Shown: one piece after another, positions 3,724-12,785 of the stretch
How positions within the stretch are numbered: the stretch's first letter is position 1
How the letters are laid out: each line of letters begins with the position of its first letter
DNA from: Escherichia coli
Lineage (GTDB): Bacteria > Pseudomonadota > Gammaproteobacteria > Enterobacterales > Enterobacteriaceae
NCBI RefSeq assembly: GCF_048403405.1
Contig: NZ_CP183133.1
Reading direction: 5' to 3' (one strand)
DNA length: 51,502 nt
Program-made: the position numbers and the translations under genes
The notes under the pieces: generated by a model
The model's database searches: none
The model's input: the letters and a program-made list of their open reading frames with translations, nothing else
Told to the model about the DNA's origin: nothing

Positions 3724-4626
3724 GTGCACGGCAAGTGAACTCCGGCCCCTGGTCAGTTCTTATCGTCGCCGGATAGCCTCGAAACAGTGCAATGCTGTCC
3801 AGAATACGCGAGACCTGAACGCCTGAAATCCCAAAGGCAACAGTGACCGTCAGGCATTCCTTTGTGAAATCATCGACGCAGGTAAGACACTTGATCCTGC
3901 GACCGGTGGAAAGTGCGTCCATGACGAAATCCATCGACCAGGTCAGATTGGGCGCCGCCGGACGGAGCAGCGGCAGACGTTCTGTTGCCAGCCCTTTACG
4001 ACGTCTTCTGCGTTTTACGCCCAGGCCACTGAGGTGATAAAGCCGGTACACGCGCTTATGATTAACATGAAGCCCTTCACGGCGCAGCAACTGCCAGATA
4101 CGACGGTAGCCAAAACGCCTGCGCTCCAGTGCCAGCTCAGTGATGCGCCCTGATAAATGCGCATCAGCAGCCGGACGGTGAGCCTCATAGCGGCAGGTCG
4201 ACAGGGATAAACCTGTAAGCCTGCAGGCACGACGTTGCGACAGACCCTTAGCCTCGCACATGACTTCCACGGCTTCCCGCTTCTGGTCTGTCGTCAGTAC
4301 TTTCGCCCAAGAGCCACCTGAAGCGCCTCTTTATCCAGCATGGCTTCGGCAAGCAGCTTCTTGAGTCTGGCGTTCTCTTCCTCAAGCGACTTCAGACGCT
4401 TAACTTCAGGCACCTCCATACCGCCATACTTCTTACGCCAGGTGTAAACGTGGCATCGGAAATGGCATGCTTGCGGCAGAGTTCACGGGCGGGTACCCCA
4501 GCTTCGGCTTCGCGGAGATATTGATGATCTGTTCGTCGGAAAAACGCTTCTTCATGGGGATGTCCTCATGTGGCTTATGAAGACATTACTAACATCGGGG
4601 TGTACTAATCAACGGGGAGCAGGTCA
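3724..4626 (-). mobile_element. IS3-family (IS407-group-like) element, left part: IRL, orfA with a 1-nt deletion, 5' portion of orfB; cut by the Tn3-family IR
   Basis: orfA-like translation MKKRFSDEQIINILREAEAG...(frameshift near TFYTWRKKY)...; orfB 5' part MEVMCEAKGLSQRRACRLTGL...TDQGPEFTC; terminal TGACCTGCTCCCC read on the minus strand at 4614-4626. Confidence 0.7.
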
Positions 4627-5055
4627 GGCTCTGTGAATAACTCAATGAGGCCTTCGCTTACAGCGGCCGCACGCGTCCGCGTCGCTCAGATAAAAGTAGC
4701 TCCCATCGCTTCGCGTCGGGCCCCAGCGGAAGAACTGCATTAGTTACAGCATTCAAAAGAAAATTCATCATAAAACCGGCGCCGGTTTGCCGGCCAGGAG
4801 CCCCTCCCCACCACTGAAAAGCGCCGCCGCCCCCGGCCGAAGGCCGGGAGTGATGTCGCTTTTAATGATGGGTGTTGTAACTACTCTTCGTCATCTCTGT
4901 GAGTAGTGTCGCGGTAAGTTCTGGGATACACGCTCGTAAGCGGCCCTAACGGCCCGCTAACGCGGAGATACGCCCCGACTGCGGCTGTCGCCTTGCCGGG
5001 ACCACTCCGACCGCGTACAGAGGCATCTGAGCCGTTTTTAGCGGGTATAGCTTTG

Positions 5056-5180
5056 CAGGGAAGGGGGTGGGTGAGGCAGAACCTGTCAAAACAGCAGCCG
5101 GCTGCGCCGGGCGACGGCGCCATTTACCCGCAGTACTCCATTCAACTTCAGCTGGCGCCTCCATGCCGCTGACGCGGCAT
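5056..5180 (+). other. Conserved structured element, copy A (hairpin ATGCCGC-TGA-GCGGCAT), 35 bp upstream of an MCGRF start codon
   Basis: Shares CAGG(G/A)AAGGGGG...GGCGCCATTT...CTGGCGCCTCCATGCCGC...GCGGCAT with 45065-45188 and, reverse-complemented, with 8433-8512. Confidence 0.35.
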
Positions 5181-5215
5181 TATCTATACTTTAAGTCTGG
5201 CCACTGGAGGTAACC

Positions 5216-5300
5216 ATGTGCGGACGTTTTTCTCAGTCTATGACGCGGGAAGAGTATCTTTCTCTCCTCGCCAATGAAGCCGATCGAAATATTGCCTACG
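5216..5300 (+). pseudogene. SRAP (YedK-like, SOS-response-associated peptidase) gene start, truncated by IS903
   Basis: ATG at 5216 gives MCGRFSQSMTREEYLSLLANEADRNIAY; the MCGRF N-terminus with catalytic Cys2 is characteristic of SRAP proteins; ends at the IS903 IR (5301). Confidence 0.5.
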
Positions 5301-6357
5301 GGCTTTGTTGAATAAATCAGATTTCGGGTAAGTCTCCCCCGTAGCGGGTTGTGTTTTCAGGCAATACGCACGCTTTCAGGCATACCTGCTTTCGTCATTT
5401 TGTTCAGCGCTCGTACCAGGGCCATAGCCTCCGCAACCTGACCATCGTAGTCACGCAGCGTCAGTGAACCCCCGAACAGCTGTTTTACCCGGTACATCGC
5501 CGTTTCCGCTATCGAGCGACGGTTGTAATCTGTTGTCCATTTCCACCGCGCATTACTCCCGGTCATTCGCTGATTCGCAACAGCACGGTTACGGTCTGCA
5601 TATTCACCGGGCCAGTAACCCGCGCCTTTTCGGGGTGGGATAAGCGCGCTGATTTTCTTACGCCGCAGTTCATCGTGACAGAGCCGGGTGTCGTAAGCGC
5701 CGTCTGCCGATGCTGCCCTGATTTTTCTGTGAGTCTGCCGGATAAGACCCGGGAAGGCTTCTGAGTCCGTCACATTGTTCAGCGACAGGTCTGCACAGAT
5801 GATTTCATGTGTGTTGCTGTCAACTGCCAGATGCAGCTTACGCCAGATACGGCGGCGTTCCTGACCATGCTTTTTGACTTTCCACTCGCCTTCACCGAAG
5901 ACCTTCAGCCCGGTGGAATCAATTACCAGGTGTGCGATTTCACCCCGGGTGGGCGTTTTGAAACTGATATTAACCGACTTTGCCCGCCTGCTGACACAGC
6001 TGTAATCCGGGCAGCGTAGCGGAACGTTCATCAGAGAAAAAATGGAATCAATAAAGCCCTGCGCAGCGCGCAGGGTCAGCCTGAATACGCGTTTAATGAC
6101 CAGCACAGTCGTGATGGCAAGGTCAGAATAGCGCTGAGGTCTGCCTCGTGAAGAAGGTGTTGCTGACTCATACCAGGCCTGAATAGCTTCATCATCCAGC
6201 CAGAAAGTTATGGAGCCACGGTTGATGAGGGCTTTATTGTAGGTGGGCCAGTTGGTTATTTTGAACTTTTGCTTTGCCACGGAACGGTCTGCGTTGTCGG
6301 GAAGATGCGTGATCTGATCCTTCAACTCAGCAAAAGTTCGATTTATTCAACAAAGCC
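5301..6357 (-). mobile_element. IS903 (IS5 family), copy 1, 1057 bp
   Basis: 18-bp terminal IRs GGCTTTGTTGAATAAATC at 5301-5318 and inverted at 6340-6357; flanking 9-mers differ. Confidence 0.9.
5357..6280 (-). CDS. tnpA: IS903 transposase (307 aa, GTG start inside the 322-aa ORF)
   Basis: ORF translation ...[43 protein letters not shown]... matches IS903 transposase as I recall it. Confidence 0.85.
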   Translation of the reverse strand: MAKQKFKITNWPTYNKALINRGSITFWLDDEAIQAWYESATPSSRGRPQRYSDLAITTVLVIKRVFRLTLRAAQGFIDSIFSLMNVPLRCPDYSCVSRRAKSVNISFKTPTRGEIAHLVIDSTGLKVFGEGEWKVKKHGQERRRIWRKLHLAVDSNTHEIICADLSLNNVTDSEAFPGLIRQTHRKIRAASADGAYDTRLCHDELRRKKISALIPPRKGAGYWPGEYADRNRAVANQRMTGSNARWKWTTDYNRRSIAETAMYRVKQLFGGSLTLRDYDGQVAEAMALVRALNKMTKAGMPESVRIA

Positions 6358-7376: not shown

Positions 7377-8432
7377 GCTTTGTTGAATAAATCAGATTTC
7401 GGGTAAGTCTCCCCCGTAGCGGGTTGTGTTTTCAGGCAATACGCACGCTTTCAGGCATACCTGCTTTCGTCATTTTGTTCAGCGCTCGTACCAGGGCCAT
7501 AGCCTCTGCAACCTGACCATCGTAGTCACGCAGTGTCAGTGAACCTCCGAACAGCTGTTTTACCCGGTACATCGCCGTTTCCGCTATCGAGCGACGGTTG
7601 TAATCTGTTGTCCATTTCCACCGCGCATTACTCCCGGTCAGCCGCTGATTCGCAACAGCACGGTTACGGTCTGCATATTCACCGGGCCAGTAACCCGCGC
7701 CTTTTCGGGGTGGGATAAGCGCGCTGATTTTCTTACGCCGCAGTTCATCGTGACAGAGCCGGGTGTCGTAAGCGCCGTCTGCCGATGCTGCCCTGATTTT
7801 TCTGTGAGTCTGCCGGATAAGACCCGGGAAGGCTTCTGAGTCCGTCACATTGTTCAGCGACAGGTTTGCACAGATGATTTCATGTGTGTTGCTGTCAACT
7901 GCCAGATGCAACTTTCGCCATATACGACGGCGTTCCTGGCCATGCTTTTTGACTTTCCATTCGCCTTCACCAAAGACCTTCAGCCCGGTGGAATCAATCA
8001 CCAGATGCGCGATTTCACCCCGGGTGAACGTTTTGAAACTGACATTAACCGACTTTGCGCGCTTGCTGACACTGGTGTAATCCGGGCAGCGCAACGGAAC
8101 ATTCATCAGTGTAAAAATGGAATCAATAAAACCCTGTGCAGCCCGCAGGGTCAACCTGAACACGCGTTTAATGACCAGAACGGTGGTGATGGCGAGATCA
8201 GAATAGCGCTGAGGTCTTCCCCGTGATGAAGGCGTTGCCGACTCATACCAGGCCTGAATAGCTTCATCATCCAGCCAGAAAGTTATGGAGCCACGGTTGA
8301 TGAGGGCTTTATTGTAGGTGGGCCAGTTGGTTATTTTGAACTTTTGCTTTGCCACGGAACGGTCTGCGTTGTCGGGAAGATGCGTGATCTGATCCTTCAA
8401 CTCAGCAAAAGTTCGATTTATTCAACAAAGCC
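7377..8432 (-). mobile_element. IS903, copy 2
   Basis: IRs GGCTTTGTTGAATAAATC at 7377-7394 and inverted at 8415-8432; about 98% identical to copy 1 by eye; no 9-bp target duplication. Confidence 0.9.
7432..8355 (-). CDS. tnpA: IS903 transposase
   Basis: 322-aa ORF nearly identical to copy 1. Confidence 0.85.
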   Translation of the reverse strand: MAKQKFKITNWPTYNKALINRGSITFWLDDEAIQAWYESATPSSRGRPQRYSDLAITTVLVIKRVFRLTLRAAQGFIDSIFTLMNVPLRCPDYTSVSKRAKSVNVSFKTFTRGEIAHLVIDSTGLKVFGEGEWKVKKHGQERRRIWRKLHLAVDSNTHEIICANLSLNNVTDSEAFPGLIRQTHRKIRAASADGAYDTRLCHDELRRKKISALIPPRKGAGYWPGEYADRNRAVANQRLTGSNARWKWTTDYNRRSIAETAMYRVKQLFGGSLTLRDYDGQVAEAMALVRALNKMTKAGMPESVRIA

Positions 8433-8512
8433 GTCTGTGTTGTAAAATGGCGCCGAAAGCCCGGCGTAGCCGGTTGCCGGGCTATAAATTCTGCCACCCT
8501 ACCCCCTGCCCT
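8433..8512 (-). other. Conserved structured element, copy C (5' half only; cut by IS903 copy 2)
   Basis: Reverse complement CAGGGCAGGGGGTAGGGTGGCAGAATTTATAGCCCGGCAACCGGCTACGCCGGGCTTTCGGCGCCATTTTACAACACAGACGG aligns with the 5' half of copy B (45065-45140). Confidence 0.35.
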
Positions 8513-8920
8513 GATTAGCCTTAACTCGCGAACAGCAATGAAGAAGTCAAAGTAATCCCTTTTAACCCCGGTGAGCGGGCTTTACGGCGTTTACGACGTA
8601 AAGGGCGTGATTTCCGGGGCCTAAGCGGCGGCAGCTTGCTGCTGACGCTTAGGGGGATGTTCATCAACTATTTCAGCGACACCAGGGAACTTAACACGGT
8701 AGCTGCAAAGCCCTAATCCCGCTCACCGCCACGCAGCTGCCGTACGTCCCCCACGGGGGTGCGCAGTGCTGCGCGCGGGAACGGCGGCCCGTCTGCGGGA
8801 CGCGGCGCCGTACTGCGCGTTAGCGGCCGCACGCGGCCGGTTACGGGGGACACTCCGCCATACGACCAGCGACCCGCTGAGCTGCACAATCCACAGATAA
8901 CACAAGCTACATACATGTCG

Positions 8921-9716
8921 ATATGGGAATCGGCCCACCTTGCCGGGCGCCGGTGCCGTGTGGAAATCCGCCCACCTTGCCGCGCGCCGGTGCCGTGTGG
9001 GAATCCGCCCACCTTGCCGGGCGCCGGTGCTGTGTGGAAATCCGCCCACCTTGCCGCGCGCCGGTGCCGTGTGGGAATCCGCCCACCTTGCCGCGCGCCG
9101 GTGCCGTGTGGGAATCCGCCCACCTTGCCGGGCGCCGGTGCTGTGTGGAAATCCGCCCACCTTACCGGGCGCCGGTGCTGTGTGGAAATCCGCCCATCTT
9201 GCCGGGCGCCGGTGCCGTGTGGGAATCCGCCCACCTTGCCGGGCGCCGGTGCTGTGTGGAAATCCGCCCACCTTACCGGGCGCCGGTGCTGTGTGGAAAT
9301 CCGCCCATCTTGCCGGGCGCCGGTGCCGTGTGGGAATCCGCCCACCTTACCGGGCGCCGGTGCCGTGTGGGAATCCGCCCACCTTACCGGGCGCCGGTGC
9401 CGTGTGGGAATCCGCCCACCTTACCGGGCGCCGGTGCTGTGTGGAAATCCGCCCATCTTGCCGGGCGCCGGTGCCGTGTGGGAATCCGCCCACCTTGCCG
9501 GGCGCCGGTGCTGTGTGGAAATCCGCCCACCTTACCGGGCGCCGGTGCTGTGTGGAAATCCGCCCATCTTGCCGGGCGCCGGTGCCGTGTGGGAATCCGC
9601 CCACCTTACCGGGCGCCGGTGCCGTGTGGGAATCCGCCCACCTTACCGGGCGCCGGTGCCGTGTGGGAATCCGCCCACCTTACCGGGCGCCGGTGCTGTG
9701 TGGAAATCCGCCCATC
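8921..9716. repeat. Tandem array, about 21 copies of a 37-bp GC-rich unit (TGTGGGAATCCGCCCACCTTGCCGGGCGCCGGTGCCG); iteron-like, downstream of the truncated rep gene
   Basis: Motif CCCACCTT recurs at 8934, 8971, 9008, 9045 (period 37); units are contiguous with no spacers; variant positions alternate (G/C, C/T, G/A). Confidence 0.85.
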
Positions 9717-9765
9717 TTCATGACAAAAATTTGTCAAATGACAGGCTCATGTGTGCTGATTTATG

Positions 9766-10864: not shown

Positions 10865-12785
10865 TGTTAAATATGTCGCGGTAGGGATACCCGTTACCGG
10901 ATACCCCCCGCACAGATCCCGGCGTGCGCGATTTACGCACCGGGCTCCTGCCTCGGGTGTCTGGCGGTGAACCGCTCCACAGGCCATGGATGAAGAACCC
11001 GAACCCTTGGTAGCCATGCGGCTGCCAGTTTGTTTGCTTTCGTCCAGGTCGTATCATCCTTCTGGCTCCTGCGCCTGAGCGCCCGGCGCCAGAGGTTTGT
11101 TACGTGTGTCCTGAACTTCTGCATGGTGGGGAAGTTGCCCGGTACCGAGTGATAGTTCAGGTATCCCTGAACCACTCTCCTGAGCCATTTTCCCTGTTCG
11201 GGGATTGAGTAATGCCAGCGCCTTCGCAGACCGTCTTTGATGGCTTTCAGAGTTGCCGTCATCCGATCCCGGCGGGTCTTTCGTATCAGCATGAACCTGC
11301 CGTTGCGATCTTTCCCGCTGATGTGCGTGAACCCGAGGAAGTTGAACGTTTCTGGTTTGCCTTTTCCCCTGATGGCACGGTTTTCGGCAGCGAAGCGGCC
11401 GAACTCCATCAGACGGGTTTTCTCCGGGTGAACCGTGAGTCCGAACTCCCTCAGTCTGCGCTGCATGGCTATACGGAAGCGCCGGGCATCGTATCGTTTG
11501 TCGAACCCGATGACGATGTCATCGGCGTATCTGACCATTACCACATTGCCTGTGGCATAGCGACGTCGCCACTGATGCGCCCACAGATCGAAGACGTAGT
11601 GGAGGTATATGTTTGCCAGCAGCGGTGAGATGACCGCACCCTGTGGGGTGCCTTCCTCCGTTGCTCGCCATTGACCCTCCTCCAACGTCCCGGCTGTGAG
11701 CCACTTACGTATGAGCCTGATTACGCTCCGGTCGCCGATCCGATGCTCTGTGAACCTGATCAGCCATTCGTGGCTCACCCTGTCGAAGAACTGACTGATG
11801 TCGGCATCCAGTACCCAGTTTACGTTAGTGCGTACCAGCCCTGTGGCCAGTGCGTCCAGTGCATCGTGCTGGCTTCGCCCGGGTCTGAACCCGTATGAGA
11901 ACCCCATAAAGTCGTTTTCATAGACTGCGTTCAGGATTTTCACCAGCGCATACTGGACGATCTTGTCCTCCAGCGAGGCGATGCCGAGCGGGCGTTGTTT
12001 TCCATCCGCTTTTGGGATGTAGTGACGCCTGCCGGGCTGCGCCCTGTAGCTGCCCTGATGTAGCCTCCGGTGCAGATCTGTTATGTTGTTCTTCATGTTT
12101 CCGGCGTAGTCCATCCACCTGATGCCATCCACTCCGGCGGCCGCTTTCCTGCTCAGGGAGAGGAATGCGGCTTCCAGTGCTTCGACTGTCAGCAGGTGGA
12201 ACAATGCTGTAAACCGTTCTTTCTTCCGCTGCTTCGCAGCTTCCCGCACGCGTGACAGCCTCTGTGACATGCTTTCCCGGCTCTGTGTCCGGCGCATGTG
12301 TGGCTGTTCCGCGTTCCCCTTGGCCCCGCTCCTTCGCTCCACTGACTCCGCTCCTTTCGGGTTGTTCGCCTGCTTCGCCGCTACTATGAGCGAGTCCGAC
12401 TTCTCCTCTCCGTACATCACCGGCTATGACTCCTCGTCTTCCCGGTGCGGGCCGTCTCCGACACTGGCAGATGGTCAGAGGGGAGATCTCCCGGTTCCCG
12501 CGTAGAGATCGTATTGACATGCCAGGGTCTCAGACCCCGCCGGGTCCATGTGGCACTCGCAGTATCGCACCCTATGATGTTGCCTTCCGTTAACAGTACA
12601 ACGTCGGCACCCGGTAATTTAATATACATTTCGTGGCTCAATGGCTGGCCTGTCAACACCCCTGTCAACGCTTCGCCCCATACCTCGCGGTATGCAACGC
12701 ATGACTCGGGGACCTTGTGGATTGCTGGTCCTTCAATGGTCGGGGACTTTCACCCCTTGATCTCTACCGGTCTCCCGGCGAACAC
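10865..12785 (-). mobile_element. Group II intron (approximate boundaries) carrying an RT/maturase ORF
   Basis: Domain-V-like hairpin GAGCCCGGTGCGTAAATCGCGCACGCCGGGATC (minus strand, plus coords 10915-10947) overlaps the RT stop; about 490 nt of structured sequence lies 5' of the RT start; exact 5'/3' ends not resolved by eye. Confidence 0.5.
10933..12297 (-). CDS. Group II intron reverse transcriptase/maturase
   Basis: ORF translation has RT motifs (…KADGKQRPLGIASLEDKIVQ…GTPQGAVISPLLANIYLH…VRYADDIVIGF…) and a maturase-like C-terminus; start placed at MRRTQSRE (the ORF track extends to 12420). Confidence 0.8.
   Translation of the reverse strand: MRRTQSRESMSQRLSRVREAAKQRKKERFTALFHLLTVEALEAAFLSLSRKAAAGVDGIRWMDYAGNMKNNITDLHRRLHQGSYRAQPGRRHYIPKADGKQRPLGIASLEDKIVQYALVKILNAVYENDFMGFSYGFRPGRSQHDALDALATGLVRTNVNWVLDADISQFFDRVSHEWLIRFTEHRIGDRSVIRLIRKWLTAGTLEEGQWRATEEGTPQGAVISPLLANIYLHYVFDLWAHQWRRRYATGNVVMVRYADDIVIGFDKRYDARRFRIAMQRRLREFGLTVHPEKTRLMEFGRFAAENRAIRGKGKPETFNFLGFTHISGKDRNGRFMLIRKTRRDRMTATLKAIKDGLRRRWHYSIPEQGKWLRRVVQGYLNYHSVPGNFPTMQKFRTHVTNLWRRALRRRSQKDDTTWTKANKLAAAWLPRVRVLHPWPVERFTARHPRQEPGA

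Follow-up and report, generated by a model that had tools for sequence, protein, structure and literature searches.

What is the short structured element that occurs three times in a 51,502-nt stretch of an Escherichia coli plasmid (contig NZ_CP183133.1; the whole stretch is referred to here as the window), and does it act on the genes that follow it? A reading made from the sequence alone, hereafter the sequence-only reading, had described a family of conserved elements of ~125 bp, two of them placed immediately upstream of gene starts, and had offered a single-strand promoter, a single-strand-initiation (ssi) site, a leader RNA or a small mobile repeat as possible identities.

A covariance model built from 33 diverse homologues, run with filters off over both strands of the whole window, finds exactly the three copies that had been proposed, on the proposed strands and each below E 0.05 (Table 1), and no fourth copy at E<0.05 in the whole window. 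The next-best matches, at E about 0.08–0.09, are the palindromic terminal hairpin read on the opposite strand. Because the model, which derives from a MAFFT alignment, mis-pairs A-type copies, the stems were extracted by anchors in a script. Pairwise identity is 78% between copies A and B, 78% between A and C, and 84% between B and C; at these levels the copies are old relatives that have diverged from one another, and no recent duplicates.

Table 1. Copies of the element, their parts, and neighboring relic features in the window. H1–H3 are the three hairpins described in the text; stems are given as left arm / right arm.
Feature	Position	Strand	Evidence or remark
Copy A, complete	5046-5184	+ match; proposed active (template) strand -	covariance model, 101.8 bits, E 7e-28
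Copy A, CAG	5056-5058	+ (5'-CTG-3' on -)	proposed primase start triplet; primer AGGGAAGGGGG... rightwards from 5057
Copy A, H3	CCGGC 5098-5102 / GCCGG 5106-5110		ssDNA fold and compensatory haplotypes
Copy A, H2 basal stem	GGCGCC 5116-5121 / GGCGCC 5154-5159		ssDNA fold and compensatory haplotypes
Copy A, H1	ATGCCGC 5163-5169 / GCGGCAT 5174-5180		ssDNA fold and compensatory haplotypes
Copy B, complete	45055-45191	+ match; proposed active strand -	covariance model, 73.5 bits, E 9e-20
Copy B, CAG	45065-45067
Copy B, H3	CCGGC 45105-45109 / GTCGG 45113-45117		one G:T on + (A.C on -)
Copy B, H2 basal stem	GGCGCC 45124-45129 / 45162-45167
Copy B, H1	45171-45177 / 45181-45187
Copy C, cut by IS903	8433-8523 (model match 8416-8523)	- match; proposed active strand +	covariance model, 34.4 bits, E 1.4e-8
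Copy C, CAG	8513-8511	-
Relic of IncFII(K)-type basic replicon tail, post-oriR segment	4698-5300	+	carries copy A and the first 28 SRAP codons
Ter-like sequence AATGATGGGTGTTGTAACTAC	4864-4884	+	between the lost oriR and copy A; read by eye

Followed 5' to 3' along the proposed active strand, the element consists of three hairpins (H1, H2, and H3) and then an unpaired, pyrimidine-rich tail of ~40 nt that ends in CC(C/T)TG. H1 is ATGCCGC, a loop of 3–4 nt, and GCGGCAT, in agreement with the conserved terminal hairpin reported earlier for copies A (5163-5180) and B (45171-45187). H2 has a basal stem of 5–6 bp around 43–45 nt, within which the inner stem is variable, and H3 is a 5-bp stem with a loop of 3–4 nt. 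Copy C ends at 8433, and the inverted repeat of IS903 (GGCTTTGTTGAATAAATC) starts at 8432, which bears out the proposal that this copy was truncated by IS903. It is preserved from the CAG through the primer-template tract and H3 to the 5' arm of H2; IS903 removed the other (3') arm of H2 and the whole of H1. Copy C is probably inactive after the loss of two hairpins; copies A and B are structurally intact.

Homologues were collected by a DNA-pattern scan of viral and metagenome contigs, supplemented by an HMM search, for a total of 126 full-length copies, of which 94 are unique and 59 remain after removal at ≥96% identity. The pattern scans are biased to copies with an intact H1, so the conservation of H1 is partly built in. 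A search of genome contigs by RepA alignment gave three loci only. The IMG/VR ‘viral’ contigs with the element encode a cytochrome bd oxidase, a RelE toxin, and an autotransporter, and nothing phage-like.

Folding and alignment, the checks that the sequence-only reading had suggested, show three hairpins that are conserved by compensatory changes. All three were recovered in single-strand DNA folds of copies A and B and of the homologue in plasmid R100, with single-copy fold energies weakly better than those of shuffled sequences (z −0.2 to −2.4). Among 95 unique copies, the basal stem of H2 occurs as GGCGG/CCGCC (58 copies), GGCCA/TGGCC (25), GGCGCC/GGCGCC (7), and GGCGAC/GTCGCC (1), and H3 occurs as CCGGC/GCCGG, CCCGC/GCGGG, or GCGGC/GCCGC. 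Two distant copies carry a matched deletion in H1, with ATGCGC/GCGCAT instead of ATGCCGC/GCGGCAT. Counted on a tool alignment that contains subfamily misalignment, 85.6% of cells are paired, compared with 80.0 ± 0.8% after shuffling (0/500 shuffles) and 28–49% with slid partners, and the covariation score is 0.159, compared with 0.086 after shuffling (0/500). Two H2 pairs change from GC to CG and from GC to AU, in seven to eight sequences each. RNAalifold applied to the MAFFT alignment finds H1 only, since indels between subfamilies misalign H2 and H3.

The CAG, which is CTG on the active strand, is invariant in 61/61 sequences of an alignment whose members are all <96% identical; the pattern used for collection excluded the CAG and lay 110 nt away from it. 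The triplet falls outside all predicted stems; on the active strand it lies 3' of the hairpins, in a tract that is left unpaired.

Further copies on other plasmids, for which a search had been suggested, are abundant: copy A matches at least 5000 plasmid records and is 100% identical to stretches in many plasmids, and many of its matches lie at ~1500–2000 in records linearised at repA. At the matches in the plasmid records that we inspected there is either no annotation or a spurious hypothetical protein. The position of the element is locked to one of two contexts, either ~0.72 kb 3' of an IncFII-family repA and thereby some 400 bp beyond oriR (origin type) or in an F-like leading region beside oriT (leading-region type). 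Among the 75 origin-type homologues with ≥1.5 kb of sequence on the upstream side, a same-strand IncFII-family repA ends 590–860 nt upstream in 57 (median ~718). The genes 3' of origin-type copies vary (SRAP, DUF2913, CPBP protease, and TnsE-like); the constant neighbor is repA on the upstream side, which assigns the element to the replicon. The leading-region copies, 38/38, lie between a DUF932 gene, upstream and on the same strand, and a convergent SLT/orf169 gene, adjoining traM and oriT.

Plasmid R100 holds one copy of each kind, a post-oriR copy and a leading-region copy, in the same orientation relative to the tra genes. At the former locus, repA ends at 45370 and is followed by a DnaA box (TTATCCACA) at 45546, a Ter-like GTTGTAAC at 45917, and the element at 46086-46223, with its CAG at 46096 (in NC_002134, the element is at 90385-90522 and the CAG at 90395-90397). 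The CAG is ~550 nt past the DnaA box and ~370–400 nt past the AT-rich end of oriR.

The leading-region copy of F connects the family to experiment. The sequences of F ssiD (D90178) and ssiE (D90180), which go back to Nomura et al., 1991, are given in Supplementary file 4 of a recent survey (Samuel et al., 2024; PMC11541004). We mapped D90180 to positions 13562-13373 of the F locus (L001) with 99% identity, and this is the leading-region copy of the family in F; ssiD maps to Frpo1 and Frpo2 of F. An HMM made from origin-type copies only finds the ssiE locus within 66 kb of F at E 1.6e-7 over model positions 3–136, and an HMM from a four-sequence seed that includes copies A and B of the window finds it at E 1.1e-4, together with its R100 counterpart. 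Judged by sequence, the family includes an experimentally cloned ssi, and among the identities offered earlier it is the single-strand-initiation site that is upheld.

Both the ssiD and the ssiE deposits correspond to the minus strand of the F record. In F transfer the leading region enters first, with its 5' end at nic. Taken together, the strand of the deposited ssiE and this geometry imply that the cloned active strand is the transferred strand, that is, the complement of the orientation in which the element was first described in the window.

The evolutionary record of the hairpins holds one feature that fits less easily. Imperfect stem pairs are G:T on the plus strand in five to seven haplotypes, including H3 of copy B and H3 of F ssiE, vs one A:C haplotype. 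If selection acted on the minus strand, the opposite bias would be expected; the counts are small, and the difference is not significant. F ssiE has such a G:T pair in H3 and was nonetheless active when first assayed, so that H3 is possibly dispensable, or the bias possibly a product of mutation. The bias could also mean that the fold is used by the other strand as well, or by an RNA.

With the homology to ssiE, two fixed contexts, conserved hairpins, and an invariant CTG, we consider it probable that the element is a primase-dependent ssi signal of the plasmid ‘G-site’ (phage-G4-type) class, to which the R1/R100 post-oriR site and F ssiE would also belong. In R1, leading-strand synthesis reportedly begins ~400 bp past oriR, at a ‘G site’ that needs primase only. 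The G sites of R100, F, and R6K are said to have conserved blocks in common, and to be like phage G sites near the start only. Both ssiE and the R100 site have reportedly been classed as G4-type; position and sequence features suggest that the R100 element would be the G site and that ssiE would be of G4 type. Primers made by E. coli primase begin with pppAG, synthesis starting at the T of 5'-CTG-3'. A phiX174-type (PriA/n') primosome site seems disfavored, in that an invariant CTG and a layout of several hairpins would rather suggest the primase-only class.

The way in which such a signal would work can be outlined from these features. The duplex would be opened, in vegetative replication by DnaB loaded at oriR; for leading-region copies, the equivalent of opening would be the entry of the transferred strand into the recipient. 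The active strand, complementary to the one first described, would then fold into H1, H2, and H3, with the hairpins presumably staying free of SSB, and these would present the unpaired tract on their 3' side to DnaG primase. Primase would start at the T of the invariant 5'-CTG-3' and make a pppAG... primer, which Pol III would extend, in origin-type copies in the direction away from oriR. That DnaG is needed, that synthesis starts at this very nucleotide, and that SSB is excluded or plays another role are predictions of this scheme. The orientation fits, as the strand with the CTG templates synthesis away from oriR in the origin type and is the transferred strand in the leading-region type.

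Other explanations have to be weighed against a primase site. The sequence-only reading had pointed to TTGAC(T/A)/TATACT-like hexamers, and leading-region genes are known to use single-strand promoters. A promoter of the Frpo type would be one in which the folded transferred strand makes −35 and −10 boxes double-stranded and RNA polymerase transcribes the SRAP or DUF2913 gene early after transfer. In a sigma-70 scan, no pair of hexamers resembling a promoter lies within the element or spans it: there is no site in 4900-5320, the sole site in 44950-45400 (45256-45284) is outside copy B, and the TATACT hexamer lies, in copy A, in the non-conserved spacer beyond the conserved element and is absent from copy B. 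The element, of ~135 nt with three short hairpins, does not resemble a hairpin of ~330 nt that could rebuild the boxes; neither ssiD (D90178) nor ColIb Frpo1 has a match in the window (blastn, word size 7, E≤0.01), and on reading, F Frpo1 and Frpo2 look unrelated to it. Copy A does end 36 nt 5' of the SRAP start (35 bp in the sequence-only reading), and ssiE has been placed among ‘known Frpo/ssi sequences’ (PMC11541004), but in 38/38 leading-region copies the gene that follows has the opposite orientation, and the window has no transfer region near its copies. We regard a promoter of this type as highly unlikely. That the plus strand acts as a structured RNA in the sense of repA, be it a leader, a stabiliser, or a 3' element that works on its neighbors, is hardly more credible, even though the hairpins are conserved, the imperfect pairs are biased to G:T on the plus strand, and repA and the leading-region genes are read in the sense of that strand. 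Rfam 15 gives no match at the gathering threshold at the three sites and none at E≤1 around copies A or B, no promoter was found nearby, and the lack of a T run after H1 means that H1 is no intrinsic terminator. The genes downstream are unrelated between plasmids and it is the upstream repA that stays constant, which tells against the proposed leader, and the most conserved part of the element, the CAG and its flank, is unpaired and would be left unexplained by an RNA hairpin.

The fixed distance from repA and oriR, and the adjacent Ter-like sequence, would also suit a duplex site in the flank of the IncFII origin that binds a host factor or another replication-control protein, perhaps in connection with termination, its hairpins being incidental palindromes. 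The compensatory changes keep pairing and not sequence, and the element is found also beside oriT, far from any origin, where it is an active ssi when single-stranded; we find such a duplex site quite improbable. To a small mobile repeat, or the end of an IS or transposon, we give almost no credence. Three copies in one window, two of them abutting IS elements, might suggest one, but the ends of IS903 and of the IS3-family element interrupt the repeat or its flank and are not part of it, no terminal inverted repeats common to the edges of copies A and B were found to bound it, and the copies are 78–84% identical with flanks homologous to replicon tails, in a context that is fixed relative to repA or oriT.

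If the element is an ssi signal that belongs to a replicon, how did it come to lie where it does in the window? As a plasmid segment the window is mosaic and of Klebsiella type, with an IncR backbone (repB, parAB, umuDC, resD, and vapBC) broken up by IS elements and a group II intron in one part and IncFIB(K)-type cargo (fec operon and ABC transporters) in the other. It has no replication gene adjoining copy A, B, or C, and no transfer region near any of them. The segment around copy A (4698-5300) is 88% identical to positions 1195-1825 of Klebsiella pneumoniae pHK31_2, a record that starts at repA, and the post-oriR regions of R100 and of a Shigella IncFII replicon are 77% identical to it (for R100, over window 4799-5180). 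The replicon homology ends at 4697/4698, beside an IS3-family element, and the oriR and repA that would lie upstream are absent; an IS1222-type frameshift element is found at 4210-4327. The right border of the relic is an IS903, whose inverted repeat is at 5301. This second IS903 interrupts the SRAP gene (ATG at 5217) at 5300/5301, so that the gene that copy A precedes is itself cut. Between the lost oriR and copy A, the Ter-like sequence is found at the equivalent place in R100 and in the Shigella plasmid as well; its GTTGTAAC core and the G at its position 6 presumably agree with the Ter (Tus-binding) consensus.

The other copies have comparable origins. The flank of copy C (8513-8725) matches plasmids at record positions ~1620–1900, which is the segment downstream of repA, and homologues of copy B in other plasmids are located 650–850 nt 3' of a RepA-family gene and 5' of a DUF2913 gene. 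Copy A keeps the post-ori flank at 4698-5045; copies B and C keep short homologous flanks only. The window copies are of the origin type, that is, post-IncFII-oriR, and not of the leading-region type, and the tails of at least two different IncFII-family replicons, one of A type and one of B/C type, are represented among the three. We read all three as orphaned relics, their repA and oriR lost in rearrangements mediated by IS elements (IS3-family and IS903). The nearness of a copy to a downstream gene start is incidental; for copy B, the 119-aa open reading frame that was said to follow immediately has its GTG 128 nt away.

Copies A and B, with their predicted fold intact, could fire whenever the active strand is single-stranded, and the relevance of this to the present plasmid is putative. 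A stronger version, in which they are autonomous, RNA-polymerase-independent entry points for primase that have been selectively retained, and that would speed the conversion of single strands to duplex after mobilisation or help vegetative restart, strikes us as unlikely. To be set beside that version is the observation that the host plasmid is a mosaic of IncR and IncFIB(K) types without F-type leading-region ssi elements.

The element class is known already, having been cloned and dissected in 1989–1994, and with window copies that are orphaned relics the value of the locus as a discovery is small. Its interest lies elsewhere. An element that is present in at least 5000 sequenced plasmids, and that has no Rfam family and no annotation in the records inspected, will be rediscovered repeatedly by first-pass readers. 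It marks the tail of IncFII-family replicons, and orphan copies are fossils from which the assembly of mosaic resistance plasmids can be reconstructed. Recent large surveys group ssiE with the Frpo single-strand promoters (PMC11541004). By our comparison ssiE looks to be of a different kind, with neither sequence nor architecture in common with Frpo, and counts of ‘Frpo-like promoters’ may include primase sites. Complementary-strand synthesis in recipients was not blocked by rifampicin in a 2026 preprint, and this resistance leaves room for start sites of the primase type that are independent of RNA polymerase.

Comparison with known systems places the element among these sites by degrees. Like the Frpo/ssiD sites of F and the Frpo/ssi sites of ColIb-P9, the family would act as folded single-stranded DNA that can prime the complementary strand, and it shares with them a leading-region location; unlike them, it has no hairpins of ~330 nt that rebuild −35 and −10 boxes for RNA polymerase upstream of same-strand genes. 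Phage G4 oric has the same arrangement of three hairpins followed by an unpaired 5'-CTG-3' start on the active strand, and its start site, CCCTACTGCAAAGC (3998 is annotated as the origin), resembles CCCTGCAAAGC of copy A, but the CTG is 3 nt from hairpin I in G4 and ~40 nt from H3 in the element. A direct homology to G4 oric was considered and rejected, as the sequences as a whole are not significantly similar and short matches apart from the start-site motif are at chance level.

The G site of R1 and R100 is nearer. The R100 homologue of the element lies at the reported distance past oriR (~400 bp), and its CTG strand is oriented as the template for synthesis away from oriR; the window copies differ in that they are without repA and oriR and so cannot serve such a replicon. 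F ssiE, for its part, differs from the window copies in location, as it is in the leading region beside oriT, between the DUF932 gene and orf169, and they are of the origin type. Its tract between CTG and H3 is unalignable with theirs, and its stems are GGCCA/TGGCC in H2 and CCCGC/GCGGG in H3. It also has much in common with them: the homology extends over the whole element, the same three hairpins are kept by compensatory substitutions, the ATGCCGC/GCGGCAT of H1 is identical, and the invariant CTG is present on the deposited strand.

R100 carries two copies of the probable single-strand initiation element, one in its leading region and one by its origin, and both lie in identical orientation relative to the tra genes. 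From this shared orientation it follows that the CTG strand of each, the strand proposed to be active, is the transferred strand, so the origin copy, too, could serve to start the complementary strand once the DNA is in a recipient.

In the window, origin-type copy A lies in an IncFII(K) replicon tail truncated at about 4697 by the end of an IS3-family element, itself marked by the RF00383 frameshift element. A Ter-like (Tus-binding) sequence beside copy A occurs in the same place in R100 (L010, about 45907-45927) and in a Shigella IncFII plasmid (L005, about 1398-1418). By what we take to be the polarity of Ter, the site in the window would block a fork coming from the oriR side, at the close of one complete replication round and immediately ahead of the proposed priming site.

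The imperfect pairs of hairpins H3 and H2 have a strand bias. Across the family they are mostly G:T on the strand opposite the deposited active strand of ssiE, the leading-region member of the family on F (5-7 haplotypes with G:T vs 1 haplotype with A:C). Possible causes are a mutational bias, an H3 that can be dispensed with, or a role for the other strand or for an RNA.

The origin-type HMM gives an extra weak match (E 0.005, model positions 54-136) at 1939-2022 of the F plasmid locus L001, about 53938-54021 of F, deeper within the leading region and upstream of the gene for a DNA methylase. This match could be either a degenerate third relative or a product of chance. Two IMG/VR contigs classed as viral, L017 and L022, hold copies whose neighbors are genes for cytochrome bd oxidase, a RelE/StbE toxin and an AIDA-type autotransporter, and no phage-like genes were seen flanking the family copies in either contig. 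Both were probably filed as viral in error and are relics from a plasmid or a chromosome.

Elsewhere in the window, a group II intron is inserted in the IncR backbone upstream of umuDC, and thousands of plasmid records also contain the 37-bp unit of the tandem array near copy C, each at many sites.

Features of the window and of the F (L001) and R100 (L010) loci
Feature	Sequence	Position	Strand	Details
IS1222-type ribosomal frameshift element	window	4210-4327	-	RF00383, 131.6 bits
Ter-like (Tus-binding) sequence	window	4864-4884		AATGATGGGTGTTGTAACTAC; between lost oriR position and copy A
Tandem array	window	8924-9718		37-bp unit TGGGAATCCGCCCACCTTGCCGGGCGCCGGTGCCGTG, 21.5 copies, 93% matches; adjoins copy C flank
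ltrA-type reverse transcriptase/maturase ORF of group II intron	window	10933-12420	-	
Group II intron	window	12525-12750	-	Rfam RF02005, 186.6 bits
Copy B site for imperfect-pair count (H3)	window	45105-45117		
F ssiE	L001	13373-13562		F plasmid 65372-65561
R100 leading-region copy	L010	5505-5642		
R100 origin copy	L010	46086-46223		

A large survey of leading regions used F ssiE as one of five ‘known Frpo/ssi’ queries (Supplementary file 4, PMC11541004), and an earlier preprint gave the Frpo label to both ssiD and ssiE. We found no common sequence or architecture between ssiE and Frpo, the single-strand promoter class. Priming sites of the primase type may therefore be among the ‘Frpo-homologous promoters’ in BLAST-based tallies.
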